Under the pieces are notes generated by a model. The model did not search any database, was not told the origin of the DNA, and saw only the letters and a program-made list of their open reading frames with translations. Both the position numbers and the translations under genes were made by a program. Of a stretch of 64,000 nt of DNA, positions 90 through 41,800 are shown piece after piece. This DNA comes from Lytechinus pictus (lineage: Eukaryota): NCBI RefSeq assembly GCF_037042905.1, contig NC_087245.1, forward strand, positions 5,582,001 to 5,646,000. The letters run 5' to 3'. Position 1 is the stretch's first letter. Every line of letters starts with the position of its first letter.

Positions 90-454
90 TTATACTAATT
101 TTGATAAACCAGAGTATGACAAATCCACATCTAAATATCCATTTTCGCGGAGTACTTTCGAAGTTGATTTCACATGCATGTCAATTATTGCTTTGTGTTT
201 GTTCGTATAAGGGTCAAAAGTCCTATTACTTTCCACTTTCTGACGATGAAAATTTCCTTCTGGATGTGCCACCATGCAGTCTAGTCTGTGATCGTCGATG
301 GGAACGTGTAAGAATTGGAGGATTCTCACTATCTCCTGACGGAGGTGGGATTGAAGTCGTTCGAAGTATACGACCATGACGTTGGTACGGGTAACCCAAG
401 TTACGATGCGTTCTTCCCACGCGATGGATGCACTCTCGACAAATGCGTCCCAAT
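90..454 (-). CDS. WSCD-family-like sulfotransferase last coding exon
   Basis: DWDAFV...VVYFERL...RLDCMVAHPEGNFHR...FDPYT matches the WSCD C-terminus. acag| acceptor in phase 1; stop at 92-90. Confidence 0.85.
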
Positions 455-1196
455 CTGTTTTGGATGTGAAAGAAAGAGGGATGAAAAAATTAAGGATGGG
501 GGGGGGGGTTGAAATGATGTAAGTTTGTGCATACGCGGATCCGGGGAGGGGTGGCGGTCCCCTATTGACTGCGCACAAAAAATAAGAACAAACTAAAACA
601 AATTAAATGACAGGATAAAAAGAAAGAAAAAAAGATAAGAGGAATAAAATTAAGTGAATGAAATTAGGGAATTGGAATGATTGGAAAATATAAAAAACTT
701 TAAGATAACTAAAAATATCACTCGTGCTTTTGGCTCCTATTACCCATAAAACATGTAGCCTATTCGCTGAATATATACGTGAATATATAGGCCTAACGTT
801 TACAAGTCAAAGTACCAAAAATTGTCTGCTCGTGATTCGATATTTCATTTATCAAGCGAGATTCACATACTGTTCATGCGATTGCAGCGGTGCTGAATAA
901 AATTATTTCAGCTCGCGCTTCGCGCTCGCATTATTTGATTAGATAGATACCTATCCTCTTCCTGATGAAATACAAGGGCGGTGCCTGAGTATTTTGACAT
1001 TGGACATGATCGATGAATTATAGTGTCTCTTTTTTTATTATTGTATTTATTCTTTCTCCTAGTTTACACCGTTTTTATATATTATTTTACATAGTATTTT
1101 GATTTCATATACTTAAAACATAACGAGGTATAGTTGTCCCCTGTCACACTCTCTTCGACCCTGTTATCAAATATCAAGTTCGTTTATTGTACTCAC

Positions 1197-4365: not shown

Positions 4366-4501
4366 AACCTTAACATTGTTAAGATGCAATTCTGATGATC
4401 AACTGAGGAGTCATTGCACAGCTAGGCACCTAAATTATCCTTCAAAAATCCAGTTTAAAAGTTGTATTCTTGCCAATCCATACTTTGGATATAGGCCTCA
4501 T

Positions 4502-7500
4502 GAGAATCAGAGGTGTGCGCTTAGCTGGCGACTCTCTGTTGCTCTGTCTTTGCATTAAGATTAATTGTGTTATTTGTTTATGCTACCTTATTTTTTGTAT
4601 ATATATGAGTCTTTGTATGTCATAGAAGCTCATGCTAGACAAGTTTTGAGTGATTTTGATATATTGTATTGTCAGTGATTGACTTAGATTTTTTTTTGCA
4701 TATACCTATGCTGTACATGTTTAGGTGAGTTTGTACTTGCTGCCATACTGTGTTTCTTTCAATGTACTTGACTATTCAATGTCAACCATCCGTGTCATTC
4801 TTTCTTTATTTGTCCTTGAATGTGATTTGGTTTAACAATGGATATTATCAGGGTTGTCACCTTTGTTATGGTTCTTACACTGGCCAGTGTACATGTTGTT
4901 GATTGTCATGTAGTATTACAGTATAGACCTTGTAGTGTAATATCACCATCTAGAGTGAAAGTTATTGGATCATATATGTTGTACTATTCCAACTCGAATG
5001 CCACTTTTAGGTTGAGAATACTTATATCTGGTGATGTCAGTCCAAATCCTGGACCTCTGTTCTCTGAGAATTGTACACAAGCACTCACAGATGACAGACA
5101 TATTGTTCATGATGTAGTTGGTAAATCTTACACTAGACTTGATCTTTTCCGATGTAATGTTTTACCCATTAAACTACAACACCATTTCCTCCATCCTGAT
5201 GTTTTGATAAATATTAAGAGGTAAGGAATAAATCGTAAACTAAAAAAGAAAGCTCATCGTGGGAAACGGGGAGGTTGTAGAAAGCAACGTAGAATCCCAG
5301 TACTTACTGGTATCTCTCAGTTTAGTCTGAACAACAAATCTTCTGTGCAGGGAATTAATCATCATAACTTGATTGTTGTTGATACCAATAATAAAAAGGT
5401 TCATGAGTCCTGTTTAAAGATATGTTTATGGAATGCTCACTCTGTACGTAATAAGACATTCCTACTCAATGATTATATTTCTGAACACAATATTGATGTA
5501 ATGATTATAACAGAAACATGGCTTCGAGCAGAAGATCCAGTCATCATCGCAGAATGCCTACCAGCTGGATATGCGGTTGTGAATGCTCCAAGACCAACAG
5601 ATCCTCATGGCGGCATCGCGGTTATTTTTAAGTCTCCACTTCAACTACAGCTGAAAATGGATGACTCTCTGACTTATTCTACATTTGAGCTAGCACACGT
5701 TGTTAGCAATGGAGGTCAATTGCATTTCTTGGTAGTCTACCGACCACCACCTTCTGTGCAGAATCAGCTCCGTACAGCAGACTTTCTTCAAGAATTTGAT
5801 GATCTTACTGCTGAGATATCACGATTGGCTGGGCGAGTTCTTCTTCTTGGGGACTTTAACATTCACGTCGATAAACCTTCAAAGTCTGATGTAGCTCAGT
5901 TCCTATCCATCATAGAATCTGCTAGCTTGGTTCAACATGTCACCGGAGCTACCCATAACATGGGTCACACTTTGGACCTTGTAATGACCAGAGATGAGAG
6001 TAATCATCAAGGACAATCCTCTGCAGACATCTGTCCTACCCGTCATGGCTGCATCATTGAAGATATTGTCATTTATCATAGTCTCATGTCTGATCATCAC
6101 TGCATCCGATTTGTACTCAGGTATCCTCGGCCGGTGGTGAAGAAAGTTAGGCGGACTTTTAGGAACTTCAAGGAAATGGACACAGAGGGATTTAGTGAGG
6201 CACTGATTGACAAACTTAATGACTTGTCCTCGGCTGGTGATGTTGATTCAGTTCTTACTGCGTATAACACATCTGTAGCAGCCTGCGTTAATGAGTTTGC
6301 TCCTCAGAAATCATGTCTCCGCTCCACAAGGGTTCGCAATCCTTGGTTCAACGAGGAAATCCTTACTGCGCGTCGAGAAAGAAGACGGATTGAACGGAAA
6401 TGGATCAAACGTTCTTCAGACACTGATCACACATCTTTTAAGCTAGCTAACAAGCATGTTAATGACCTCATAGTTAAGGCTAAGCAAAAATACTATACGG
6501 AGTTACTCTGTAAAGCCAATGTCAAAACAGTTTTTAATGTTGTTAATAATCTGCTCCACAAGAATGTTAAATTTCTCCCTGTGTATGATAATCCTCTTGA
6601 TCTAGCAAATCGTTTTTCTTTGTTCTTTGTCAAGAAGATAAGTGATATCCGCAACAATGTCACAAATACACCTGAACCAAGAAGTGTAGACAGTCAGGAA
6701 GTCAGTTCTTTTCATGAAAGTATGTTGAATTGTTTTGAGGTTGTCAGTGAGGATAATATCAAACGCATTGTGAGCAATATGTCTAATGCCACTTCTTTAA
6801 CAGATTCTCAACCTACTTGGCTTTTGAAAAAATTTGTCAATAGCAATATTCCTGCTCTGACCTCTATTGTAAACAGCTCATTATTATCGGGTACATTTCC
6901 AGATGGTGTTCATCAGGCTATAGTTACACCAATAATCAAGAAAAACAATCTGAATAAAGACACATTATGTAATTATAGGCCTGTTAGTAATATTTCACAT
7001 ATTGCTAAAGTGATAGAAAAGGTAGTATCAATTCAACTAACAGAACACGTAAATGATAATGGTTTATACGATCCAATGCAGTCAGCATATAGATCCTATT
7101 TCAGCACTGAGACAGCCCTTTTGAAATTGCAGAATGATGTTCTGTCATATTTTGATCAGCATAAGTGTGTTTTCTTAGTCTCATTAGACCTAAGTGCAGC
7201 TTTTGACACTGTGGATCATACCATACTACTGAATCGCTTAAAATCTCGATTTCGCATATCTGGTCTAGCTCTTAAATGGTTTAAGTCTTACCTGACTGGT
7301 TGGTCATCTAGGGTAAGCATAGCCGGAGAGTTGTCTGACCCGTGGGTCACTGAGTTTGGGGTACCCCAAGGGTCAGTTCTCGGGCCGATTCTGTTTAGTT
7401 TGTATATCACTCCCATCTCTGACATTATCAATAAACATGGTCTACAGTATATTTGTTATGCATATGATGTACAACTGTATTGTTCCTTTGACCCGCGCTC

Positions 7501-8435
7501 TTTTGATAACATAAATAAAACACTTGAGAAAACCTCTCTTTGTATTTCAGAAATAAGTAGGTGAATGTCATCTAATTATCTCCAGCTGAATAATAGCAAA
7601 ACTGAATTCATAGCTCTCTGTTCTTCTGCCCGCCATCTGCAATCAATATCACATATTCAGCTTAATGTGAATGGTCAATGCATCCCCATCTCCACTAAAA
7701 CTACTGTTCTTGGAGTATGCATTGATAACATGTTCACACTGTCTGCTCAAGTAAATCAGGTTGTCCGTAATTGTAATTATCATCTCAGCAATTTGTGGAG
7801 GATTCGTAGATTCATTGATCTTAAGACATGTCACCATGCTGTGCGAGCACTTATTCTTTCTCGGTTAGATTACTGTAATAGTTTATATACTGTTTTGTCA
7901 GCTAGAGATAGACGAAAACTTGAGGTTATTTAGAATCGTGCCGCTCGATTAATTTTTGGCTTTGGATCCCGAACTCAAACTACACCCCTACTTAAGGAAC
8001 TCCACTGGCTACCTCTATTCCAACGTATTCAGTTTATAGTCTGTTTATATGTATACAAAACTCTAAATCATCTAGCACCTGAATATCTTAATAATACCAT
8101 CAAATTATACACACCCTCTCGTAATCTTCGTTCAATCACTGACACATGCAGACTTTGCATTCCCTTGTCAAAACTCTCCTCTGCCGAAAAACGGTTTGCT
8201 GTAGCAGCTGCCAAGACTTGGAATACTATCCCTCTTTCAATAAGAAATGCTTCCAGTGTTCTTGGCTTCAAATCTTCCCTTAAGACAAACCTTTTTCCTC
8301 AATGATTAATTTCCCTTTTTATCTTGAATATTGTAGTAATTATTGCAAATGTTAAATTGTTATTCCTACATTGTACGTGCTATGGTACTTTTTGTTTTTA
8401 GCGCCTCTAAATACCCATTATTATTATCATTATTA
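4502..8435 (+). mobile_element. Apparently full-length L2/CR1-group non-LTR retrotransposon, copy 1
   Basis: One reading frame 4838-8305 with APE (WNAHS, ITETWL, GDFNIH, SDH) and RT (DLSAAFDTVDH, GVPQGSVLGP, YAYD in place of YADD); (ATT)n 3' tail; near-identical to 26406-30340. Confidence 0.95.
4838..8305 (+). pseudogene. Disrupted single ORF of the L2/CR1 element (leader, 2A-like motif, APE, RT; about 1155 codons)
   Basis: ORFs at 4838, 5345 and 7565 share one frame. Stops at 5222, 7562 and 7931 are sense codons (TTA, TGG, CAG) in copy 2. Confidence 0.9.
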
Positions 8436-10489
8436 CAATGTTCTTTAAAAGTAAAAAAAACAAAAAACATCTATAATATTCATATGAATTAGCAATTATT
8501 TTAGTTTATCGCCCGGTATTGTATTTTTTGTCATGTATAGAAGTTTAACCATCAGATCATTGAGTCATTAGACCACATCACAACAACGATTTGCGCAGGT
8601 ATGGCCAATTTGAAATTTGCGCGCTGTAGGAAAAATTTTGTCAGAAATCACTAGAAACTTTGACATCCAGTGCCACATGTAATTCAACAAACAGAAAACT
8701 TTAGAAATGACAGGGGTATGAATTACTATACATAATGCACACACGCAAACCCATGTACCCGATATATGATTTATTTCTATTTATTTGTCACGTGATGTAT
8801 CGTGAAACGTTTGTGTCGAGTCACGTGATGATCTCCAATCCAAGGCGTGACGTGACTGTATAGCGGTTTCTTCAACCAATCGGGTTGCACTAAACTTTTG
8901 CCATAGCTATGTGGTTAAATGCACGTCCGGGTCGCGAAATTATTTTCCCCACGATAGTTGTGGACCAAAATACGAACTAATTTGCATACAGCCAATCAGA
9001 GACGATTATTTTTTTTCCCTTGATCTTTTTTCCAACCACAGTTCCGGACCCCAATATGAATATTCATGACTTGCGTCATGAACATATTGAAGAGTGCGCG
9101 CGTGGACATAATTACACAATCACATACTAAATCATGACTGACGATAATTTGTTTTTGTCTATTTTCTTCATATTTTTATTGTCAAAATCATTTTTATCTA
9201 AAAGATTTCTATGTTGACTGTTAATGCAGTATTAGTTCAGTTTTTATAATAACAATAGCGCAGAATGCTATGACCATTAAACTTGTATGATAAAAATTTG
9301 AATATTTAAATATGTCAATTTCTTTATTCAACTTCTAACACTTATGTTACTTTATTGGTAAAAATCAGAGTTAATTTTTCTCATTCATCTTGTACAAGGA
9401 CCTTCAGTCAAAATCTAAATCTTTAGATAATATTTGGTGTTTCTTCTCTATTTTTTGTTATGCCTGGTGGCTGCTCATGATAATACATGACCCGTCATTA
9501 TGGACCATTAGACAGCTTCTGGAAGACTTTAGGGGTATTTACCTTTCCCCCTTCTCTTTCTCAATTTTCTTTCCCTTCCATTTAGTCGATTTGACATTTT
9601 CCGAACCTAGAAATGTTCTTTCCGATGAAGTTTTTTTCTTGATTCGTGTTCCTATGGGGTCCTAGAACAAATTCAGCTTGGTTGCCCAAAGTTGCCGTTT
9701 GGGCAATTTTGCTAATTTGCATAAATCCAAAATGGCCGCCAGATGCCATCTTAAAACTTAACTTTTGAACCCCTTGCCCTAAAATGATAAGTAATGACTC
9801 TTTTTAGGGGTTTAGGAACTTCTATTATCCTTTTTGCAATATAACGTCATCTTCAGGTCAAATCCAAGATGGCCGCCAGATGCCGTCTTGAAAAATTGAC
9901 TTTTGATTCCCTTGCCCCAGAATGACGAGTAATACCTCTGTTTAGGGGTTTTGGGGTGTGTAGAATCTCTTTCTGCTATCTATTTTGCAATATACGGTCA
10001 TCTTCAGGTCAAATCCAAGATGGCCGCCAGATGACGCCATCTTGAAATATTAACTTTTGAACCCTTTGCCCCAGAATCATGAATAATAACTTTATTCGTG
10101 AGTCATTTGGTATGTTGATTAAATTTCTGATGTAATTTTGCTATAAAGGATAATCTTCAGATCAAATCCAAGCTGGCCGCCAAGCGCCATCTTGAAAAAT
10201 TACTTTCCGAGGCTTACAGTGTAAGAGCTTATGTAAGGGGATTTCAGTAAGAATACTAATTTCTTTTATTAATTCTTAATTTTTAGTTCAAGGGGAAGTC
10301 AGATCTGAGATGTCAGACGTTCGACATTTACTGCTCACCTAAAAGAGATCCTCTTTAGGTTTCGGCTATGATCAATTTTGTATTTGTATTTCTTTAAATG
10401 TCCATCCGTACTTTTGTACTGAAGAGGCTTTAAAGTCTTATTTGAATTTGAAAAAGTGTTTTTCCATATTTTTCATAAATCAAAGTGTC

Positions 10490-26405: not shown

Positions 26406-29400
26406 AATAATAATAATGGGTATTTAGAGGCGCTAAAAACAAAACGTACCATAGCGCGTACAATGTAGGAATAACAATTCAACATTTGCAATAATTACTA
26501 CAATATTCAACATAAGAAGGGAAATTAATTATTGAGGAAAAAGGTATGTCTTAAGGGAAGATTTGAAGCCAAGAACACTGGAAGCATTTCTTATTGAAAG
26601 AGTGATAGTATTCCAAGTCTTGGCAGCTGCTACAGCAAACCGTTTTTCGGCAGAGGAGAGTTTTGACAAGGGAATGCAAAGTCTGCATGTGTCAGTGATT
26701 GAACGAAGATTACGAGAGGGTGTGTATAATTTGATGGTATTATTAAGATATTTAGGTGCTAGATGATTTAGAGTTTTGTATACATATAAACAGACTTTAA
26801 ACTGAATACGTTGGAATAGAGGTAGCCAGTGGAGTTCCTTAAGTAGGGGTGTAGTGTGAGTTCGGGATCCAAAGCCAAAAATTAATCGAGCGGCACGATT
26901 CTGAATAACCTCAAGTTTTCTTCTATCTCTAGCTGACAAAACAATATATAAACTATTACAGTAATCTAACCGAGAAAGAATAAGTGCTCGCACAGCATGG
27001 TGACATGTCTTAAGATCAATGAATCTACGAATCCTCCACAAATTGCTGAGATGATAATTACAATTACGGACAACCTGATTTACTTGAGCAGACAGTGTGA
27101 ACATGTTATCAATGCATACTCCAAGAACAGTAGTTTTAGTGGAGATGGGGATGCATTGACCATTAACATTAAGCTGAATATGTGATATTGATTGCAGATG
27201 GCGGGCAGAAGAACAGAGAGCTATGAATTCAGTTTTGCTATTATTCAGCTGGAGATAATTAGATGACATCCACCTACTTATTTCTGAAATACAAAGAGAG
27301 GTTTTCTCAAGTGTTTTATTTATGTTATCAAAAGAGCGCGGGTCAAAGGAACAATACAGTTGTACATCATCTGCATAACAAATATACTGTAGACCATGTT
27401 TATTGATAATGTCAGAGATGGGAGTGATATACAAACTAAACAGAATCGGCCCGAGAACTGACCCTTGGGGTACCCCAAACTCAGTGACCCACGGGTCAGA
27501 CAACTCTCCGGCTATGCTTACCCTAGATGACCAACCAGTCAGGTAAGACTTAAACCATTTAAGAGCTAGACCAGATATGCGAAATCGAGATTTTAAGCGA
27601 TTCAGTAGTATGGTATGATCCATAGTGTCAAAAGCTGCACTTAGGTCCAATGAGACTAAGAAAACACACTTATGCTGATCAAAATATGACAGAACATCAT
27701 TCTGCAATTTCAAAAGGGCTGTCTCAGTGCTGAAATAGGATCTATATGCTGACTGCATTGGATCGTATAAACCATTATCATTTACGTGTTCTGTTAGTTG
27801 AATTGATACTACCTTTTCTATCACTTTAGCAATATGTGAAATATTACTAACAGGCCTATAATTACATAATGTGTCTTTATTCAGGTTGTTTTTCTTGATT
27901 ATTGGTGTAACTATAGCCTGATGAACACCATCTGGAAATGTACCCGATGATAATGAGCTGTTTACAATAGAGGTCAGAGCAGGAATATTGCTATTGACAA
28001 GTTTTTTCAAAAGCCAAGTAGGTTGAGAATCTGTTAAAGAAGTGGCATTAGACATATTGCTCACAATGCGTTTGATATTATCCTCACTGACAACCTCAAA
28101 ACAATTCAACATACTTTCATGAAAAGAACTGACTTCCTGACTATCTACACTTCTTGGTTCAGGTGTATTTGTGACATTGTTGCGGATATCACTTATCTTC
28201 TTGACAAAGAACAAAGAAAAACGATTTGCTAGATCAAGAGGATTATCATACACAGGGAGAAATTTAACATTCTTGTGGAGCAGATTATTAACAACATTAA
28301 AAACTGTTTTGACATTGGCTTTACAGAGTAACTCCGTATAGTATTTTTGCTTAGCCTTAACTATGAGGTCGTTAACATGCTTGTTAGCTAGCCTAAAAGA
28401 TGTGTGATCAGTGTCTGAAGAACTTTTGATCCATTTCCGTTCAATCCGTCTTCTTTCTCGACGCGCAGTAAGGATTTCCTCGTTGAACCAAGGATTGCGA
28501 ACCCTTGTGGAGCGGAGACATGATTTCTGAGGAGCAAACTCATTAACGCAGGCTGCTACAGATGTGTTATATGCAGTAAGAACTGAATCAACATCACCAG
28601 CCGAGGACAAGTCATTAAGTTTGTCAATCAGTGCCTCACTAAATCCTTCGATGTCCATTTCCTTGAAGTTCCTGAAAGTCCGCTTAACTTTCTTCACCGC
28701 CGGCTGAGGATACCTGAGTACAAATCGGATGCAGTGATGATCAGACAAGAGACTATGATGAATGACAATGTCTTCAATGATGCAGCCATGACGGGTAGGA
28801 CAGATGTCTGCAGAGGATTGTCCTTGATGATAACTACTATCTCTGGTCATTACAAGGTCCAAAGTGTGACCCATGTTCTGGGTAGCTGTAACATGCTGTA
28901 ACATGTTGAACCAAGCTTGCAGATTCTATGATGGATAGGAACTGAGCTACATCAGACTTTGACGGTTTATCGACGTGAATGTTAAAGTCCCCAAGAAGAA
29001 GAACTCGCCCAGCCAATCGTGATATCTCAGCAGTAAGATCATCAAATTCTTGAAGATCAAGTCTGCTGTACGGAGCTGATTCTGCACAGAAGGTGGTGGT
29101 CGGTAGACTACCAAGAAATGCAATTGACCTCCATTGCTAACAACGTGTGCTAGCTCAAATGTAGAATAAGTCAGAGAGTCATCCATTTTCAGCTGTAGTT
29201 GAAGTGGAGACTTAAAAATAACCGCGATGCCGCCATGAGGATCTGTTGGTCTTGGAGCATTCACAACCGCATATCCAGCTGGTAGGCATTCTGCGATGAC
29301 GACTGGATCTTCTGCTCGAAGCCATGTTTCTGTTATAATCATTACATCAATATTGTGTTCAGAAATATAATCATTGAGTAGGAATGTCTTATTACGTACA

Positions 29401-30340
29401 GAGTGAGCATTCCATAAACATATCTTTAAACAGGACTCATGAACCTTTTTATTATTGGTATCAATTAACAACAATCAAGTTATGATGATTAATTCCCTGC
29501 ACAGAAGATTTGTTTATCAGACTAAACTGAGAGATACCAGTAAGTACTGGGATTCTACGTTGCTTTCTACAACCTCCCCGTTTCCCACGATGAGCTTTCC
29601 TTTTTAGTTTACGATTTATTCCTAACCTCTTAATATTTATCAAAACATCAGGATGGAGGAAATGGTGTTGTAGTTTAATGGGTAAAACATTACATTGGAA
29701 AAGATCAAGTCTAGTGTAAGATTTACCAACTACATCATGAACAATATGTCTGTCATCTGTGAGTGCTTGTGTACAATTCTTAGAGAACAGAGGTCCAGGA
29801 TTTGGACTGACATCACCAGATATAAGTATTCTCAACCTAAAAGTGGCATTCGAGTTGGAATAGTACAACATATGTGATCCAATAACTTTCACTTTGGATG
29901 GTGATATTACACTACAAGGTCTATACTGTAATACTACATGACAATCAACAACATGTACACTGGCCAGTGTAAGAACCATAACAAAGGTGACAACCCTGAT
30001 AATCTCCATTGTTAAACCAAATCACATTCATGGACAGATAAAGAAAGAATGACACGGATGGTTGACATTGAATAGTCAAGTACATTGAAAGAAACACAGT
30101 ATGGCAGCAAGTACAAACTCACCTAACATGTACAGCATAGGTATATGCAAAAAATCAAAGTCAATCACTGACAATACAATATATCAAAATCACTCAAAAC
30201 TTGTCTAGCAGCTTCTATGACATACAAAGACTCATTTATATACAAAAGATAAGGTAACATAAATAAATAACACAATTAATCTTAATGCAAAGACAGAGCA
30301 AAAGAGAGTCGCCAGCTAAGCGCACACCTCTGATTCTCTG
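26406..30340 (-). mobile_element. Apparently full-length L2/CR1-group retrotransposon, copy 2
   Basis: Reverse complement of copy 1; open 791-aa RT-containing ORF (28904-26529, YADD intact); three small indels at about 29465, 29058 and 28895; 7-bp TSD AGACATT (26399-26405 and 30341-30347). Confidence 0.95.
26529..28904 (-). CDS. Retrotransposon reverse transcriptase ORF (APE C-terminal part plus RT)
   Basis: HTLDLV, SDH, NYRPVSN, DLSAAFD, GVPQGSVLGP, YADD, LHWLP motifs. Confidence 0.85.
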   Translation of the reverse strand: MLQHVTATQNMGHTLDLVMTRDSSYHQGQSSADICPTRHGCIIEDIVIHHSLLSDHHCIRFVLRYPQPAVKKVKRTFRNFKEMDIEGFSEALIDKLNDLSSAGDVDSVLTAYNTSVAACVNEFAPQKSCLRSTRVRNPWFNEEILTARRERRRIERKWIKSSSDTDHTSFRLANKHVNDLIVKAKQKYYTELLCKANVKTVFNVVNNLLHKNVKFLPVYDNPLDLANRFSLFFVKKISDIRNNVTNTPEPRSVDSQEVSSFHESMLNCFEVVSEDNIKRIVSNMSNATSLTDSQPTWLLKKLVNSNIPALTSIVNSSLSSGTFPDGVHQAIVTPIIKKNNLNKDTLCNYRPVSNISHIAKVIEKVVSIQLTEHVNDNGLYDPMQSAYRSYFSTETALLKLQNDVLSYFDQHKCVFLVSLDLSAAFDTMDHTILLNRLKSRFRISGLALKWFKSYLTGWSSRVSIAGELSDPWVTEFGVPQGSVLGPILFSLYITPISDIINKHGLQYICYADDVQLYCSFDPRSFDNINKTLEKTSLCISEISRWMSSNYLQLNNSKTEFIALCSSARHLQSISHIQLNVNGQCIPISTKTTVLGVCIDNMFTLSAQVNQVVRNCNYHLSNLWRIRRFIDLKTCHHAVRALILSRLDYCNSLYIVLSARDRRKLEVIQNRAARLIFGFGSRTHTTPLLKELHWLPLFQRIQFKVCLYVYKTLNHLAPKYLNNTIKLYTPSRNLRSITDTCRLCIPLSKLSSAEKRFAVAAAKTWNTITLSIRNASSVLGFKSSLKTYLFPQ

Positions 30341-30929
30341 AGACATTTTAACATAAATTTTTCAAGAAATTTAATTCTAACATGATTACAGATTTTCTAA
30401 CTTCAAAATTCTTCTTTTCTTACGGGTTCATTGAATTTGGTAATTGTCATGATTATAGGATCAGCATCAATTTGTTTTTTATTGGGCATGTATAATATAC
30501 CTTGCAAGTATATTACTTTCTATATACAGGTGTGGGTGTGGGAGCATGTGCGTGTGTTTGTTCCTGAGTACAATTAACAGTTGTGGCAAAAGAAGTTTAT
30601 CAAATGATTCAATGATTAAAGCTTACTATTTGTCTACCATTGATATTATATTTTTAAAGGTCATATCAAACATATACAAAGAAGATGGTTAAAAATACAA
30701 GAACATAAAAAAATATCAAAGAATAATGAAATACATTTAAAAATTGACTTAAATATTAAATTTAAGGGCCAAACATTTATCATAATGATACAAATGCTAT
30801 TTGTACCCAGAATAATATTTTTTAGGAGCAATTATGAAATTATAGCACATTTTTGCAAAATATGCATAAATTTGCATAATTAATTAGCCGCAAACAGAGA
30901 TAACAAATTTTCCTGAATGGTATATGTTA

Positions 30930-32616
30930 GGTGCCAGGTAAAATTGGCAGAGGTAATAATGGCAGAGGTAAAAATGGCAGAGGTGAAAATGGCAGAGGTA
31001 AAAATGGCAGAAGTAAAAATGGCAGAGGTAATATTGGCAGAGGTAAAAATGGCAGAGGTAAAAATGGCAGGGGTAAAAATGGCAGATGTAAAAATGGCAG
31101 AGGTAATAATGGCAGAGGTGAAATGGCAGGGGTTATAACGGGAGAGGTAAAAATGACAGCTCTAGGTAAAATATGGCCAGTCTTAAACCCCCATGCAATG
31201 AATTGTCAAAAAGCCCCCGCGTGTAAAATCCTGAAGATTTTTCCACATTTTAACATTGGTACAGATCCATTTAAGCAAATGACGACATAACTGTCGAAAA
31301 ATATTTACGCTTGAGTGAGCACCACTTACTTTTGAAAAGTTATTGAAAAATGGGGTGCTGGTTTGTTAAAAAGCCGAGAAAAAAAGTTTTCAATCCAAAA
31401 TTAAAGGGGATTTGGTTAAGGGGGAAAATGACACAAAAATTCTTTCAACTAAATGAAGTTCTTTTAGGTCAGAAAACGAATTACAACAAAAATAATAACA
31501 ATTAGATAATAAACAATGTTTTTTCTTCTGTTTGAAAAATAAGAGATTTGTATCAAATCTATACATTTTAGCATACCAAGCTAATTACCAAGAGGGTGCT
31601 GCTTATGGTGTACAAAATACCCAACAGTACTTCCGCTTCCAAGGGTTATGACCATCAAGGCGTTTATATCATATTGGATGCAGTGGTTAAGGTTCAGGGT
31701 CTTCTTTTATGCAAAGAATCTGAACCAGACGGTCCCCCTCGATCGACCCCAAATTGGTTTACCAGTCAAAACAGGATTATTATTGATTTTCATAATCAGT
31801 TACATATTCAGTGCCAAGCCTGGGAACGCATGCTTATTGTCATTCAAATATTTAAAAAGAATAGTACAGATGACATTACAAATAAGGACATAATATTTAA
31901 CCACAATCATCCGTGACAATTTCAACGTCTAAGCTTTCCCCGCTATGTTCTCTGTGTTTTTCTCCGCCCCCGTAACCCTCTCTGTCTCACCACCTCTCTT
32001 ATGTATACTCTTCCTCCTTTTTGCATCGGTAAACCTGGCAAAACTTTAGATATAAAAAACCAGCCAGACAAAAAGGAATGTTATGAAATGATGAATGAGA
32101 ATAGTGCAGTTTCATTTTTCTCCTGATAAATTGAATGAAAAAAATCTGTCGTTTGATTTCTTTTTAAAAAGCGTTCACGGTACACCTCCAACGAATTCGT
32201 AAATAGCATTGTTAGGCCGATGAAGACATAATGATGATGAAATGCCTAACCGTGACATGCACTTCTTATTTAATGTATGTACATGCGGGGGCTTTTTGAC
32301 AATTTATTGCATGGGGGTTTAAGACTGGCCATATTTTACCTAGAGCTGTCATTTTTACCTCTCCCATTATAACCCCTGCCATTTTACCTCTGGCATTATT
32401 ACCTCTGCCATTTTTTTTACCTTTGCCATTTTTACCTCTGCCATTATTACCTCTGCCATTTTTACTTCTGCCATTTTTGCCTCTGCCATTTTTACCTCTG
32501 CCATTTTTACCTCTACCATTTTTACCTCTGCCATTTTTTTTAACCTCTGCATGCCATTTTTACCTCTGCCATTATTGCCTCTGCCATGTTTACCTCTGCC
32601 ATTTTTACACCGAGCC
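30930..32616. mobile_element. Non-autonomous MULE/Foldback-like element with 15-bp tandem arrays in its TIRs
   Basis: 8-bp TSD ATATGTTA (30922-30929 and 32617-32624); GG..CC ends; (AGGTAAAAATGGCAG)n on the left and its reverse complement on the right; inserted into the right TIR of 20443-32878. Confidence 0.8.
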
Positions 32617-32989
32617 ATATGTTATGTATGCAGGATTTTGCAGTATCCATATCGGTGAAAGCGAATATTATAAAAGAATATTGTAGAAATAAGATTATAA
32701 ATAGTCAATTTGGCAGCCATTTTGTTTATGCAAATTAGGTGGTAAAAACATGAAAAATTGGCTTGGGAACCGGTCTCATCAGATTCAGCACATTCAAATT
32801 AGGTGAAAAAGACCGGTTCCCAACTTTTACCCCAAAATGCTTCTTTAACTCAAATTTTCCCCATATTGGTCTTGTCTAATACGTAAGCACGCGCAGAATA
32901 TAGATACGTACACCCATCCGAACTATACGTAACTGATCCGCACACTTAATTATCATTAAGTAATATTAAAGTTTTGATATATTCAAATG

Positions 32990-36032: not shown

Positions 36033-38237
36033 CAGGGGCGGATCCAGCCTTTGCCAATAGGGGGGCCCGGAATTTTTTTTCAGCCACATTTTCCCCGATC
36101 GGTCCCTCGAAGTTAATTTTTGTTTGTTTATATAAATATATATATGATTTCTCTTATTGTTTTGTTTTTGCTTTAATTTGCTATTATTTACATTGTTTGT
36201 TCTGTTGCTTATTCTATGATTTGCTTTATTTGTTTTGTTTAGCAAATAAAAACTGAAGAAGGCCAGGGCTGAAAGCTTTACAACATAGTGTATACTTTGC
36301 TTCATCCTTGATTCTTCTCTACTCTTCGCACATAAATTTATATTATAAACAATTATCAAAGCGATTGGTACATATATCCACGCCTCCCTCGTTATATAGA
36401 TATATCATAAACCTTATTTAAAAAGTGCAATCGAGCTTTTTTTATTTTATGTATTTTGTCTTAAAATTTAAAATTTTAGGGCAATGTTTATGATCCTAAA
36501 CGAGATGTGTATCCAACTAAATAATTGCTGCGAGCGCGAAGCGCGAGCAGAAAATTTTAATTTACGTTTTGATCTGTTAACGGCACCTTGTTAGCCATGA
36601 AGACGTTACATATTTCAACTATCAAATAATGCGAGCAAGAAGCGCGAGCTGAAAATTTCAATCTTTTTCACCTAAAGAATGGAAAAGGAAAAGTTTAACT
36701 AAATAATTGATGCGAGCGCGAAGCGTGAGCTGAAAAAAAATCGAGATTTAAACTCGAGATATTTTGTAAATCATGAAAAGGATGAGTTATTGGAAATCTT
36801 CCTACATTAATAATGCGAGCGCAAAGCGCGAGCAGAAAAAAAATTTATTTATTTTTAATATACGTTTTGATCTGATCAAAAAAAGGATCTGTTAACAGCT
36901 GCTTGTTAGCCGTGAAGACGTTACATATTTTAACTATCAAATAGTGTGAGCGCGAAGCGCGAGCTGAAAATTTTGACATTTCTACCTGAAGAATGGAAAT
37001 TCTAAGCACTTTTTGTAATCGTGAAAAGGACAAGTATATAACTAAACGATTGATGCGAGCGCGAAGTGCGAGCAAAAAATTCTTGACATCGCGTATTGTA
37101 AATCATGAAAAGGATGAGTAATTGGAAATTTCCCTACGTTAATAATGCGAGCGCAAAGCGCGAGCAGACAATTCTTTATATTGTGATCTGAAACTGGATA
37201 ATGATTTAAATAGAGAACATTCTGCGGATCTGAATAAACGCGTGTTTCAGATTTCGACCTGGTATTTGGGTATTCTAAATACCTTTCTTATCATGAAAAT
37301 CAATAAAGCGAGTGCAAAGCGCGAACTAAAAATATATGATATTCCCATCTAAAAAAGGGTCAATTTAAGCTCTGTATTTCAAGCACTTTGTGGGTAAATT
37401 GTGAGGTGGATATGGATCACAGTGAAAAAAGAGCTGATATGTTTCATTAATATTACTTTGAGTTTTTATATAGGACCGGGATATTCTATAGGGACATTGT
37501 CATCATATGAAAATGATGACTATCTTCCTATTTCTCTTCTTAAACATGATAGCGCGAAATCTGTTAATATTATGGCCTGAAAACTGGACGTTTAAAGCAC
37601 TTTTGTAATTATGAATAAGATGCATGAGTTGAATATCTTTCAACAATCAATGTGAGCGGAAATCGCGACCCGAAATTTTTGATAAACTGTTATCAAAATT
37701 GGGGATGTTCATAACTCACCCATCAAAGTGCGAGCGTGCAGCGCTAGCTGATAAATTTTGACAATCTGACCCGAATAGGGATATTTTGATAACGTATTAT
37801 GGAATACAGGAAAATAATAGGTACCTGAAAAATCGAATTTTGCGAGCGCGCAGCGCAAGCAGAAAATGTCAATATTTAGACCATAAAACATATATTTTTT
37901 ACAGAGCATATTTTAGAAATCAATTTGTAAATCAAACAAAATAATGAAAGTTCAATTTCCGAGCTGAAATATGTTTTGTATATTGACTTCAAAATTTGAT
38001 ATTTTAAGCTCCACATTGAGTAAGATATGTAAATCACCTATAAAATGCGAGAGCGAAAATTTTATATCCAGACATGAAAGATTTTTAAAATAATTTTCCA
38101 AGTCTTCCCCTCATCTTATTATTTTCACTCGTCTTCCTCCTCTTATGTTTCCCTTTTTTCTTTTTTTTTTCTTTCTTTCCCCCTTTTTTTTTGTTCCGCC
38201 AATATTGGGGGTCCGGGCCCCCCTGGATCCGCCTATG
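36033..38237. mobile_element. Non-autonomous TIR element with 5-bp TSD (hAT-like) containing degenerate tandem repeats
   Basis: ATAAG-CAGGGGCGGATCCAG ... CTGGATCCGCCTATG-ATAAG. Removing it rejoins the R4/Dong coding sequence. Confidence 0.8.
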
Positions 38238-38386
38238 ATAAGGAACACTCATAACTGGAAAAGCCCTGGACCAGATGGTGTACAAAACTTCTGGATAAAG
38301 AGGTTTGGTAGCATCCATACTAATCTAATGAAAATCATCAATGACATTATCAGAGGGAACAGGACTATTGAGAAATGGCTGCCAAT

Positions 38387-38833
38387 AGACCAGCTCGTAG
38401 TTACTTCTGGGACAATTTTGGTCAAATGACCTTTCATTTCTTTCATTAAGATAGGTAGATTTCAAAGCAAGATATTACGTATGCATGCCTTACATAGCGG
38501 GATGAAGAAATTGAATAAACCAGGTGACTAGAATAGCACATCAATGAACACTCTATGAAGTTATTTGTTGCATTTCTACTTTGAATGCATACTAGAGGAT
38601 GTTGTACAATGTACTTGGCAAACTGTGAAATATACCAGTCATTCGTGGACGCATTTTTTTGTGTATGTGACTGAAAAACACAATTCAAAAGAATATATGA
38701 ATAATCAAGACATCGAATTTGGTGCTTATCTCATTAAATTTTAAACCACCATGTCACTTTAGTACAAATGACCTTCCTTTGATCATGCGCAGAATCTTCT
38801 GATCATGCGCAGAGTGGAACTACGAACTGGCTT
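38387..38833. mobile_element. Small TIR element with probable AT TSD
   Basis: AGACCAGCTCGTAGTT ... AACTACGAACTGGCTT. Removing it restores EKWLPIGRTYLL in the R4/Dong ORF. Confidence 0.7.
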
Positions 38834-41800
38834 ATTGGAAGGACCTATCTACTATACAAAGGCAAAGACCCAAAACAACCTAAGAACTATGGTCCAATCA
38901 CTTGCCTCAATACTATGTATAAGCTGTTGACATCAACGCTTGCCATGCACATCGAACGACACATCGATGATCATGACATAATGGAGGTCACTCAGAAAGG
39001 TTGTCGGAAAGGAAAGAAGGGTTGTAAAGATCACCTAATGACAAACAAAGCAATAATAGGTAATGCTCGCCAAATATCTATCCATGGCTTGGATAGACTA
39101 CAGGAAGGAATTTGACAGCGTACCACATAGTTGGATCATCAAAGTTCTAGAGATGTATCACATCAATCCACACATAGTCAAGTGCATCAGCAGGTATGAA
39201 ACAATGGAGCACTACTCTTTCGCTTACGATAGGGACCCGTTCGATGAGTGGAGGGGGTCCGAATCAAGAGAGGAATATTTCAAGGAGATTCACTATCTCC
39301 TCTTTTATTCTGCTTAGCTCTCAATCCAGTATGCTCTCTCTTACACGCTACGAGTTATGGCTACAGATACAAAGGGCACGATGTATCTACGACAATAAAT
39401 CATCTGATATATATGGATGATATCAAACTCTGCAAAAAATGACGATGAACTTCACAAGATGATAGCAGTAGTTAAACACATCAGTGATGACATCAAGATT
39501 TCGTTTGGTATAGACAAGTGTGCCAAAGTTACATTTTATACGAAGAAGGAGGGTAAAAACAGGCGACATGTTTGTGCAAGATGAGGAAACATCAATCAAG
39601 GAACTGACTAATGATTCGACATATAAATATCTAGGCATAGCTGAGAATGATGTCATTAGTCATAACACAATGGAGAAGGCAACATCAGAATACAAAAGAA
39701 GACTCAGGCTGATTCTCAAATCCGAACTGAATGCCAAAAACAAGATTGAAGCGATCAACACTCTAGCCATTCCTGTGCTTAGATACAGTTTTGGTATTGT
39801 TAACTGGAGACTAGCTGATATATGTGGCCTAGATGTTATGACCAGAAAGCAATTAACGATGCACAGATTACATCACACAAAGGCCGCAATCGAAAGGTTG
39901 TACCTACCCCGTGATCTTGGAGGAAGAGGTCTACAACAAATTGAGATGGTCTGGAACATGGAAGCAACGAACCTCGCCAACTACCTATCCAATCCACCTG
40001 ATATACTGACGAGTATATCCCTCGATTATGATAAAAGTCAAGCAATATACTCCATTAACAAGCAAGCATCTATCTTATTGGCACAACATCGACTGACACT
40101 ACCCTACGGTGAAAAAGAGAAGGCAAGACTTAGATGCTCCTTTCACAAGAAACTTCAAGAGCAACTTAAATCCAAGCGACTTCATGGCCACCATGAAAAA
40201 CAGACGCATCGGGAGTTCGTAGACCAGAAAGACTCCCATCAATGGCTTAAGTCGGCGGGACTAAGAGGTGGTGAGGACCCGTGCCTACGAAAAATCTATC
40301 CTCAGAACAGACACAGACGACACTTGCAGGAAGTGTGGAAAAGAGACCGAAACAATCATGCATTTGGTATCAGCATGTTCGACTCTTGCTGGAACTGAGT
40401 ACATCACAAGACATGACAATATTGGCAACTACTGAAGGATCGCGGTAAAATGACATGTGATCACGCTTGGGAACATCAGCCACAAACGATCACCACGATC
40501 AATAACAGCACCATATATTGACACTGTGGCATACTATTACTAACGGATAGAACCATCAACTGCAACAAGCCGGACATCATCGTCAGAGACAACAACGTAG
40601 TAAATATCATTGAGGTCTCTGTTCCCCATGATATCAACATTGCTGTAAAGGAAAGAGACAAACGGCTCAAGTATCAAGACATAAGGTTTGAGATCGAGAG
40701 GATGTGGAACGTGAAGGCAGAGGTCACACCAGTCATCATTGGTCACTCAGGAATGGTGAAGAAGGGAATGGAAGCCTGCATAACCAAGATCTCTCCTCAC
40801 CTTCGGATGTACGACATTCAGAAGGCAGCTATCTTGGGTACAACCAGATTGATAAGACTCTCGGACATTAGTAGTGTTAAGTTCCTAGTTGCACTTGAAA
40901 TTAATTGGTGCTTTTTGTTAGAGCAAAGTTATTCAAGAAAAATACGGACTTGATCCTGTTTAGAGGAGTAATAATAATAATAATAGTAATAATAATTATA
41001 ATAATAATGATATTAATGAAAACATACATTATGAAAATGATGATGATAATAATAATAAAAAATAGTAACTAATATTAATAATACTGAAAAATAAAATAAT
41101 GATTATAATAATAATAATGATAATCATAACAGTCAAGGCATTCCTCTGAAATGGTTGAAAGGTTAAATCTTATTCATCCACTCACTCACTATTACCTGCC
41201 TTCAACATCCATCTCTTCTTTCTTCCTCATATTATCTTTGACATCAACAATTCACCCCTCATATTCTCTGATATCACTCCTCCTTCTACCCCTCCCAACA
41301 TTCTCTTTGCTACGTTTACTACCCCTCCCCCATATTAGTGCCTATCTTTTTTCTGCTCATAACTAGTTCCCAATCCTTCCCTCAGTGAAGGTAAATATAC
41401 AATAATGCATACATAAATCATATTGTGAACAATGTGACATCGTATTTAGCAATAAGCACACAAATTTATTTCCTATGTTCTATGCAGCACAAAAAGTCTT
41501 GAGCACAGCAAATTATTTTTATCATGGAAAAAAATAATAAAAAAACAAAAATACTGTGAGGAAATATTCCTAATGGCATGTCAACACAATACAACATTTC
41601 ACAATTTAAGTACATGTATGCAGAAAATATAATAGGAATGTGACAACTGAATATGACAATAACTTTAGTCAAGAATGCATATACAGGTAAAATAATACTA
41701 ACTTCCACAAATAAAATTTAGATGAGGATTGTGTTGCCAACCAACGTTACTTTGTGTGAACAGCACCAGGAAAGTACAGAACATGGAGAGAAGTAGGCCT

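Follow-up and report, generated by a model that had tools for sequence, protein, structure and literature searches.

Among the systems described so far, the closest to the present element are single-ORF echinoderm LINEs, in which 2A-like motifs 40-80 aa into the frame have already been published (Odon 2013, PMC3708506; Luke 2013, PMC3894237). The elements of these reports, from S. purpuratus, Branchiostoma and Nematostella, share with ours a 2A-like motif at this depth in one ORF, the lack of ORF1 and the frequent replacement of E, as well as a tract of 90-115 aa between 2A and APE (STR-51, STR-61, STR-142 and STR-197) and a spread over L2, Rex1 and CR1. The report of Odon states that the tract has 'no motifs suggesting a function' and makes no mention of a 'signal peptide', whereas in the present study a signal-like segment, a 33-aa block and an eIF4E-binding-like motif were found.

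Dual targeting by signal/2A sequences is known from sea-urchin NLR proteins (Roulston 2016, PMC4981915). These proteins resemble the element of the window (the whole stretch of 64,000 nucleotides of Lytechinus pictus DNA that was analysed) in coupling a signal function to 2A, with secretory or cytosolic fates, in the same phylum. They differ in that one N-terminal stretch of 26 aa is both signal and 2A, the canonical E is present and the carriers are immune genes. In our element signal and 2A are 50-81 aa apart, a spacing that leaves SRP time to act while the ribosome is still short of G|P. The HR2 of XBP1u with its arrest peptide (PMC6624018), like the SecM-type monitors of bacteria, also combines a hydrophobic targeting segment with a tunnel-acting peptide at a fixed distance; there is no sequence relation to the window leader, and XBP1u pauses without chain release. 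Likewise, for Ty1 a retrotransposon RNA is reported to be taken co-translationally to the ER in an SRP-dependent way (Doh 2014, PMC3945221). There, the Gag of an LTR element enters the lumen and returns, with loss of cis preference, whereas the window element is a LINE in which the signal is explicit and a release site is proposed.

For the region after the 2A, the comparable systems are the binding regions of eIF4G and the 4E-BPs (PDB 5T47, 4UEC, 3HXG, 4UED), with R-I-x-Y-D-R-x-x-L-L-x-L in disordered sequence, as here, and a second hydrophobic element behind it, of which the helix downstream of our motif is a candidate counterpart. Unlike these, our motif is carried on a retrotransposon enzyme, H, Y or C frequently stand at its phi position, and its binding is predicted. 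The YxxxxL(phi) of cardiovirus 2A (PMC8777194) is not structurally 4E-BP-like.

The element and its two copies

The window holds two full-length copies of one single-ORF APE-RT LINE with 97.8% identity (Table 1), and these are independent insertions. Segmental duplication as the source of both was rejected, the flanks of the two copies being different. Neither copy is intact; in copy 1 the stops lie at 5222, 7562 and 7931, and the RT reads YAYD in place of YADD. A natural copy elsewhere (G000:C12) has a single open frame of 1159 codons, and the members of this family are 91-100% identical, with mostly neutral decay.

Table 1. Coordinates of the features discussed, in positions of the window
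Feature	Position	Strand	Remarks
Copy 1, full-length single-ORF APE-RT LINE (L2-type)	4497..8436 (ends approximate)	+	(ATT)n tail; broken by three stops
5' UTR	4497..4837	+	~340 nt, without ORF1; start context ACAATGG
Signal-peptide-like segment, residues 1-23	4838..4906	+	Core 6-18 without charge; -3/-1 sites following residues 16, 17 or 23; AlphaFold helix 2-19
Variable leader spacer	4907..4957	+	Median identity 17% between families
Conserved 33-residue block	4958..5056	+	Family consensus pattern K-[YF]-x-G-x-R-I-x-Y-Y-x-N-S-x-A-T-F-Q-x-x-L-L-x-x-G-D-[VI]-x-P-N-P-G-P
2A-like core DVSPNPG|P	5033..5056	+	S at canonical E position; copy 2 at 29814-29791 (-)
YTRLDLF, YxxxxL(phi) eIF4E-binding-like motif, residues 98-104	5129..5149	+
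Second conserved amphipathic helix	5198..5230	+	Family pattern VWxxIxxLGI; stop within it in copy 1
Basic tract	5231..5290	+	With RGKRGG (5258-5275)
APE endonuclease domain	5429..6106	+	Pfam PF03372, PF14529
Reverse transcriptase domain	6938..7528	+	Pfam PF00078; portion matched ahead of stop
Copy 2, full-length, separate insertion	26406..30342	-	Flanked by 7-bp AATGTCT duplication; three frameshifting insertions
Copy 2 YTRLDLF	29698..29718	-	Position computed from Met 30009
Copy 2 leader	29791..30009	-	Met 30009 (ME..) to NPGP 29791

The preliminary description, made from the letters of this DNA, had proposed an element without a separate ORF1 in which RGKRGG, APE and RT follow the leader in one frame, and both points were borne out. 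The ORFs upstream in the 5' UTR do not exceed 46 codons, and in 6/6 multi-copy families the 5' end is common within the family, 517-605 nt above the 2A end, on which ground a truncated two-ORF element was rejected. RGKRGG lies in the frame of the leader, as do Exo_endo_phos (Pfam, E 6.7e-14) and RVT_1 (E 4.3e-26). The features of the L2 clade, APE and RT in one ORF and a microsatellite 3' tail, are present. The RT motifs QSAYR and DLSAAFD agree with the L2 element STR-51_SP and not with the Rex1 element STR-197_SP, in a comparison made by eye with the Odon supplement. The element is probably an L2-type single-ORF LINE.

At a depth of about 6%, the reads of three raw RNA runs fell on 3' parts, with none on 4400-5245, a stretch that includes the leader, and with no splice joints; GTGAGT at 4725 is thus unsupported as a splice donor. 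The contig run X1 may be DNA. Among the listed holders of the element sequence, none is on record as RNA.

The leader and the 2A-like block

The Met at 4838 opens MDIIRVVTFVMVLTLASVHVVDC...YYSNSNATFRLRILISGDVSPNPGP, with 73 codons to 5056, and the hydrophobic start and the 2A-like motif were confirmed in both copies. For comparison, families were collected by similarity to the window leader, NPGP being required in the genome set. Taking as hydrophobic a 10-residue Kyte-Doolittle window >=2.0 within the first 30 aa, the segment is hydrophobic in 26/27 divergent families of the genome, against 3/81 internal-Met and 6/26 UTR controls; +1 frames gave 13/26 and Met-start database leaders 104/121, and the segment is also kept in other echinoderms. 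The sole non-hydrophobic family (L069, probably a damaged copy) is counted in the 26/27 and was left out of the alignment A1 and of the hydropathy and codon tests; L081 and L095 were left out of the codon test, and L056, a family without Met, was also dropped. T is enriched at codon position 2 only (0.55 vs 0.31 and 0.39) and is flat in the UTR. The N-terminal 25 aa have 20% identity between families; judged from these alignments, it is the property that is kept and not the sequence. The start reads ACAATG in 22/27 families.

By a heuristic reading the layout is that of a cleavable ER signal (n-h-c, 7-20 uncharged residues, -3/-1 site), with h-regions like those of ordinary cleavable signals and -3/-1 sites in 25/26 families. 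The proposal of a signal-peptide-like N-terminus therefore gained support, with frame-specific constraint at the protein level, and we predict with high confidence that the segment engages SRP. Pfam gave nothing meaningful on the leader and the ESM Atlas no usable match (best 0.76, under the threshold for a lead), while word-indexed homolog searches, a nearly blind method, gave 0 and 3 matches.

The routing problem posed in the preliminary description also stands, since a stop-transfer segment is lacking and the stretch from G|P to APE contains no AUG. The 19-residue hydropathy near 2A is <=1.02 in 26 families, and a type I membrane topology was rejected for want of a stop-transfer segment there. 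A downstream AUG after 2A was rejected too: the in-frame Met are residues 1, 11 and 47, and the next, 222, is inside APE. Met47 has no counterpart in L058, L041 and L068.

The suggested N-A-T sequon is real, at N54, and does not fall on the family-conserved Asn, N52. A sequon is present in only 19/27 families and 86/146 proteins, and conserved glycosylation was rejected on these counts. A functional secreted peptide from the leader is unlikely. The second option of the preliminary description, in which the retrotransposon would encode a glycopeptide that works after secretion, is favoured by the signal-like start and by a sequon near -21 or -19 in 19/27 families; we consider it highly improbable. 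The middle region of the leader is poorly conserved (Table 1) and free in length, there is no conserved cysteine pattern, the Asn is kept without the sequon in 8/27 families and 60/146 proteins, the conserved part has the length of the tunnel, and no fold is predicted.

NPGP occurs only twice in the six frames of the window, once per copy. Conservation of the leader is confined to the 33 residues before G|P and begins abruptly at -32, a block that would correspond in length to about one ribosome tunnel. Within it, G-8 and D-7 are found in 27/27 families, as is L or I at -12; NPGP is found in 148/152 profile matches, and the Pro that follows NPG never varies in the sets analysed. D12 and N16, essential according to the F2A structure paper, are invariant as well. 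pN was below pS in 276/276 pairs, which are non-independent, with all codons used at G and P, in agreement with purifying selection on the motif. With clustering at 50% identity, as many as 1471 protein clusters have the block, and it stands on L2-, Rex1- and CR1-type enzymes, in urchins as well as in one sea star and one brittle star; 6/32 rows were left out of the APE tree.

DVSPNPGP departs from the canonical core (D/G/C/N)(V/I)ExNPGP. Its S at the position of the conserved E, recognised from the start, is not among the E-position variants found in viruses, and E is rare in the relatives too (4/27 families, 24/148 proteins). In reticulocyte lysate, two LINE 2As with the E-to-S change showed no activity (Odon 2013, PMC3708506), and in human cells 24/27 20-mers of the [AS][TS]F type were non-skipping, with skipping in 0/13 of those bearing E (Snell and Matreyek 2026; 1/28 rows left out as another motif class). 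The non-skipping 20-mers include one identical to family L035; the 20-mer of the window is absent from that table. The earlier claim of ribosome skipping at G|P is weakened by these results, and an S-to-E comparison on a short peptide is likely uninformative, since no E-bearing 20-mer of the class skipped. We lean slightly towards the prediction that the chain is separated at G|P when translated in the host. From the h-region end to G|P there are 50-81 aa in 26 families, and 55-75 aa between the 5th and 95th percentiles of 108 database proteins. According to de Felipe 2010, the tunnel holds 30-40 aa, and ribosome and translocon together hold 65-70 aa. The read-through product of signal-2A fusions enters the ER, and the translocon can inhibit 2A instead of helping it.

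The linker and its candidate eIF4E-binding motif

The account of the leader had missed the YxxxxL(phi) motif after G|P. In 53/128 proteins Yx4L[LMF] is present, against 3.3 in shuffles, and Y[DSTN]xxxL in 94/128; the phi position is canonical in 12/27 families, and CR1-type members are without the motif. A profile of the linker, from the 22/27 families having Y[DSTN]xxxL (alignment A4), had 8 matches among 177,635 PDB sequences, including Drosophila eIF4G (5T47, 4UEC; E 0.004) and four 4E-BP1 peptides. Six of the 8 are named eIF4G or 4E-BP1, and one is an unnamed chain, 5WB5. The linker of the window alone had no match in the PDB at E 10, and the leader-centred profile A1 found no 4E-binding peptide there. 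We take 5WB5 to be an eIF4E partner; counting it, 7/8 of the matches are, by sequence, short peptides of the eIF4E-binding type. Pfam eIF_4EBP matched one family member at E 0.11.

The motif lies in a disordered region, with no globular fold and isolated helices at 100-107 and 120-135 (AlphaFold). A conserved helix follows it at a median of 22 aa in 69/105, against 1.6 in shuffles, which does not imply equivalence to known non-canonical motifs. A complex prediction of sea-urchin eIF4E (P0166, 38-227) with residues 88-140 scored 0.00; it was made without alignments, by a method unproven on peptides, and is counted neither way. No viral eIF4E relatives for a deeper alignment were found. Only 1/22 genome families and 9/99 database proteins have a Met in the stretch from G|P to the motif. 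Among 13 loci selected by APE, 7 families are without 2A, and in each of them an in-frame AUG precedes the motif by 2-11 codons (L104 by eye). Overall, the motif probably binds a member of the eIF4E family.

Proposed mechanism and its alternatives

Our best reading, put forward tentatively, is docking at the ER, shedding of the leader at G|P and an enzyme holding its own mRNA through eIF4E. As part of this reading only, the first 150 residues would be a cassette of short linear motifs controlling the translation and RNP formation of the element itself. SRP would bind the signal and take both ribosome and element mRNA to the ER, and when G|P is in the active site, the leader of 71-96 aa would just fill tunnel and translocon. 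The extended 2A-like block would then release the leader, conditionally and probably only in a long native context; the leader would be discarded in the ER, and the ribosome would continue to a cytosolic APE-RT starting with Pro. The new N-terminus would bind the cap-bound eIF4E of the mRNA that encodes it, in the fashion of 4E-BP or eIF4G, and the basic tract would bind RNA; together they would capture the RNA in cis and shut down its translation in an element that has no ORF1p. A read-through product would end in the ER lumen as a dead end. The non-skipping 20-mers and the rarity of E in relatives were counted against this reading as far as skipping is concerned, as was the inhibition that a translocon can exert on 2A. 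Also counted against it were the lack of RNA reads on the leader, the collection of families by likeness to this leader and, for the eIF4E step, the PDB results of the window linker alone and of A1, the choice of families for A4, the phi position and the CR1-type members.

These same peptides, indifferent to E, would suit a stall without skipping, in which the block pauses the ribosome, SRP binds the hydrophobic segment and carries the mRNA to the ER, Sec61 is not gated and the full-length protein stays cytosolic or membrane-attached. The conserved tunnel length also fits, and there are precedents in XBP1u (PMC6624018) and in Ty1 RNA, reported to be translated with SRP at the ER (PMC3945221). 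We consider this unlikely: the Pro after NPG is kept as skipping needs, the h-regions with their -3/-1 sites look like those of cleavable signals, and 2A-less relatives start at the downstream motif. Self-restraint only is slightly more doubtful. Here the signal would send most product to the ER for destruction, rare skipping or mistargeting would give the little enzyme needed, and neither binding to eIF4E nor placement of the mRNA at the ER would have a positive role. It leaves the YxxxxL module unexplained, and a weak start would damp more cheaply, whereas the families keep a strong one. In its favour, Odon and Luke proposed a role in down-regulation, read-through enters the ER as noted, and 59% of tested ORF2p 2A-like peptides lowered protein abundance; only 1/27 of the [AS][TS]F type are in this reduction class.

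It is very improbable that a protease or retro-translocation frees APE-RT, with the 33-aa block as recognition site. The block ends in an exact GD[VI]xxNPGP that fits 2A geometry, and retro-translocation, for which Ty1 Gag is the precedent (PMC3945221), would lose cis preference; the lack of skipping in reporters (24/27) speaks for such a separation. A once-active 2A now decayed, behind an N-terminus hydrophobic merely through T-rich sequence, is already largely refuted and has the smallest chance of all. This was the 'simplest explanation' of Odon for inactive LINE 2As, and the UTR and +1-frame counts agree with it; pN is below pS throughout, the motif is kept on three enzyme types across urchins, sea star and brittle star, and the T bias is specific to codon position.

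We found no published account of the signal-like segment kept across families, the tunnel-length block or the YxxxxL motif after G|P. Although the block shows no activity as a 20-mer, it is under selection, and it may be an arrest peptide or a StopGo dependent on context, coupled to SRP or Sec61; if true, this would extend the known 2A mechanism and explain many 'inactive' LINE 2As. Luke 2013 (PMC3894237) raised the question of how LINEs without ORF1 take hold of their RNA and keep their enzyme in check. The YxxxxL motif may explain self-copying without the usual RNA-packaging gene, and a host-factor mimic on ORF2p that binds eIF4E, if true, would answer the question of RNA capture and is testable with two point mutants. 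It is a more speculative and, in our view, doubtful extension that many ORF1-less LINEs swap ORF1p for a translation-control cassette, the N-terminus of ORF2p being an eIF4G/4E-BP mimic that grips its own cap complex; in echinoderm lineages, a signal and a new E-independent, translocon-conditional StopGo class would unmask this N-terminus, with the ribosome docked at the nuclear envelope or the ER by the same two parts. Many vertebrate L2 elements are also without ORF1.

Single-ORF elements and their signal-like leader

In the present analysis, the two broken LINE copies in the window were 97.8% identical and lay in unrelated flanks. As described in the preliminary description, the frame from Met 4838 contains in succession a hydrophobic start, YYSNSNATF, DVSPNPGP, RGKRGG, APE and RT. 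A natural copy on contig C12 of the 812-Mb genome searched (G000:C12) has a single open frame of 1159 codons. Independent insertions shared a common 5' end, 517-605 nt upstream of the 2A motif end, in 6/6 multi-copy families, two of which were represented by one pair each; about 290-370 nt of UTR remained above the ORF. Since the 5' ends coincide among independent insertions and leave only a short UTR, these LINEs are full-length single-ORF elements, and the proposed layout without ORF1 is confirmed. About seven near-full 5' copies of the window family were found in the genome, two being the window copies, which lie tail to tail with 18 kb between them, possibly through local hopping. Leader reads were sought in three RNA runs read at 6%, and none was found.

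Features of the window with their positions
Feature	Position	Strand	Remarks
LINE copy 1	4497-8436	+	Broken; target duplication sought, none found
LINE copy 2	30342-26406	-	Broken; 7-bp target duplication
5'-terminal word GGTGTGCGC	4497-4520		Common to the distant L035 family; candidate internal promoter element
GTGAGT	4725-4730		In 5' UTR; splice-donor-like; no joint in the RNA runs, whose reads lay outside this site
DVSPNPGP	5033-5056		2A-like motif
Second non-LTR element	38094-40953	+	Broken, in fragments; presumably RT plus restriction-like endonuclease type; three pieces scanned against Pfam at E 0.01, no match
Sulfotransferase-like host gene exon	93-602	-	Pfam Sulfotransfer_1, E 7.1e-5
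15-bp unit arrays, opposite orientation	30931-31290; 32300-32686		May be the termini of a DNA transposon or foldback element

The genome was searched with the first 182 residues, which gave 153 matches, and the fetched loci were grouped into 27 families with leader identity below 70% (median 33%) and leaders of 71-100 aa. Signal peptides follow an n-h-c layout and the -3/-1 rules. A hydropathy window (10 residues, at least 2.0, within the first 30 aa) was present in 26/27 families versus 3/81 internal-Met controls, and the start context was ACAATG in 22/27. The hydrophobicity is a protein-level property, because T was enriched at codon position 2 alone (0.55) in the signal-like segment, the UTR was flat, and stops interrupted the two alternative frames in 25/26 and 26/26 families; T-rich sequence by itself yields hydrophobic stretches in 6/26 UTRs and 13/26 +1 frames. 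In addition, when 1.84 billion representatives were searched with a profile, 1471 clusters were returned at E 0.001, and among the best 150 of these a hydrophobic start was seen in 104/121 Met-start leaders of 60-110 aa. Sea urchins, a sea star and a brittle star are the sources of the named relatives. The leader is common to L2-, Rex1- and CR1-type enzymes, clade labels which we assume from the RT motifs, as judged from those motifs and from an APE tree built without reference elements. In the CR1-type database proteins P0100, P0147, P0176 and P0177 and locus L087, the signal and 2A-like block are joined straight to APE or a PHD finger, and the YxxxxL linker motif was sought and is absent; the leader cassette is modular.

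Conservation of the 2A-like block

Between families, the first 25 aa of the leader were 20% identical and its middle 17%, against 53% over the final 32 aa, and conservation began at -32 from the final Pro of NPGP. This block has the length of the ribosomal exit tunnel in the available part of de Felipe 2010, which gives 30-40 aa, or 65-70 aa including the translocon. Purifying selection was evident as pN below pS in 276/276 pairs among 24 families, with pS saturated and the pairs non-independent. The canonical E of the 2A motif is not selected, the residues in the best 150 of 1471 clusters being N 51, E 24, H 23, S 22, Q 14, D 12 and other 2 (n=148). As to the N-A-T sequon noted earlier, Asn at -21 is kept in 26/27 families, and a complete sequon at -21 or -19 occurs only in 19/27 families and in 86/146 database proteins from the same best 150 of 1471 clusters. 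A stop-transfer segment was sought in the leader families and none was found; read-through would therefore place the enzyme in the lumen if the signal worked. The leader cassette is real and under selection; the element frame is of a known kind, and the three-part cassette is a form of it that we did not find in the literature searched.

A linker motif after the putative skip site

The preliminary description overlooked a motif, Y-[DSTN]-x-x-x-L, at a median of 22 aa past G|P (range 8-34; best 150 of 1471 clusters), followed by a helix, VWxxIxxLGI, and a basic tract. Within the same best 150 of 1471 clusters, Yx4L[LMF] occurred in 53/128 versus 3.3 in shuffles, with R favoured at -3 and +2. 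A linker profile from the 22/27 families carrying the motif, searched against 177,635 PDB sequences, gave 8 matches at E 10. Two were eIF4G peptides from Drosophila (E 0.004) and four came from 4E-BP1; the remaining two were a subunit of RNA polymerase III and chain 5WB5_B, which we take to be a Leishmania eIF4E partner. The only non-APE PDB matches of the wider profile A2 were eIF4G (E 0.34) and the HIV Tat basic region. Against the resemblance to eIF4E-binding peptides, profile A1 matched no 4E-binding peptide in PDB, the window element's linker alone had no match there, Pfam eIF_4EBP gave a best E of only 0.11, on 1/26 members, and the motif is absent from CR1-type members. AlphaFold predicted isolated helices with no fold (pTM 0.24). 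The closest 4E-BP match, RIVYDRxFLLxCNP, is found in the L062, L068, L069 and L078 subfamily, which has a 20-aa extra insert before the second helix.

Thirteen loci of the genome were picked by APE similarity alone; a 2A-like motif was present in 4 and absent from 9, representing 7 families. The YxxxxL-like motif was retained in 7/7 of the 2A-less families (L replaces Y in one, and it is weaker in two), with an in-frame AUG 2-11 codons upstream in 7/7. 2A-bearing elements seldom have a Met in the stretch from G|P to the motif (1/22 families; 9/99 database proteins among matches listed), so the G|P position corresponds to the start codon position of these relatives. This correspondence is the best argument, on sequence grounds, that the working protein would begin at G|P. 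Farther upstream, 6/7 of the 2A-less families carry a Met-led, in-frame hydrophobic stretch, which may represent T-rich UTR or else another solution that pairs a signal with leaky scanning. These single-ORF-like LINEs (L099-L102, L104, L105, L107, L108 and L110) keep YxxxxL, the helix and the basic module.

Skipping, leader release and alternative readings

Published data, for short peptides only, lean against skipping by this motif class. In the available part of Odon 2013 (PMC3708506), two LINE 2As with E-to-S were inactive, and E-to-Q/D/N LINE 2As had low-level activity. In the accessible portion of Snell and Matreyek 2026 (PMC13405545), of 27 20-mers of the [AS][TS]F class, 2 skipped, 23 did not, 1 did not skip and showed reduction, and 1 gave fall-off, and E-bearing ones, some being the authors' motif-restored versions, skipped in 0/13; none of the published 20-mers includes the conserved stretch from -32 to -21 or the signal, and none was translated by host ribosomes. 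The 20-mer of the L035 family is identical to one non-skipping peptide, and the window peptide had no exact match in the part of the table available. S at the E position is not fatal as such, because 4/16 S-bearing peptides there skipped, all of the leucine-rich kind. Among the rivals to the reading favoured below, a ribosome stall without skipping, which the tunnel-like length of the block would suit, is unlikely, and damping only is slightly less likely still; that just one peptide of this class showed reduction counts against damping.

In the available parts of earlier reports, 2A-like motifs in single-ORF echinoderm LINEs (Odon 2013, PMC3708506) and dual signal/2A targeting in urchin NLRs (Roulston 2016, PMC4981915) are already described. 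A literature search for NPGP, retrotransposon, signal peptide and endoplasmic reticulum found none, with subscription papers, theses and Repbase reports thinly covered; that for a signal peptide in 2A-bearing L2-clade ORF2 found only Odon 2013 (PMC3708506), whose available text does not use the term 'signal peptide'; and that for eIF4E, YXXXXL and retrotransposon found only papers unrelated by title or listing. The terms 'signal', 'signal peptide' and 'eIF4' are absent from the accessible text of PMC4120745 and PMC13343379. In the literature searched, we found no report of a signal, 2A and eIF4E-binding-like motif together in one LINE.

From the anatomy, conservation and spacing that the sequence shows, we tentatively favour, at somewhat below even chances, a joint reading in which SRP-dependent docking at the ER would lead to conditional leader release at G|P, and the released enzyme would capture its capped mRNA in cis via eIF4E and the basic tract. 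Separation by a non-ribosomal route would also free the enzyme and is very improbable. That the leader is a secreted peptide would suit the signal-like start and the sequon of 19/27 families, and is hardly to be expected with 17% identity in the leader middle and the sequon missing from 8/27 families. Least probable of all is a vestigial leader and 2A; the pN and pS values speak against it.

As for the eIF4E step of the favoured reading, candidate host partners are an eIF4E1-type gene at G000:C18:23044218-23052083 and a gene at G000:C16:10333333-10334471, which we take from its motifs to be of 4EHP type.
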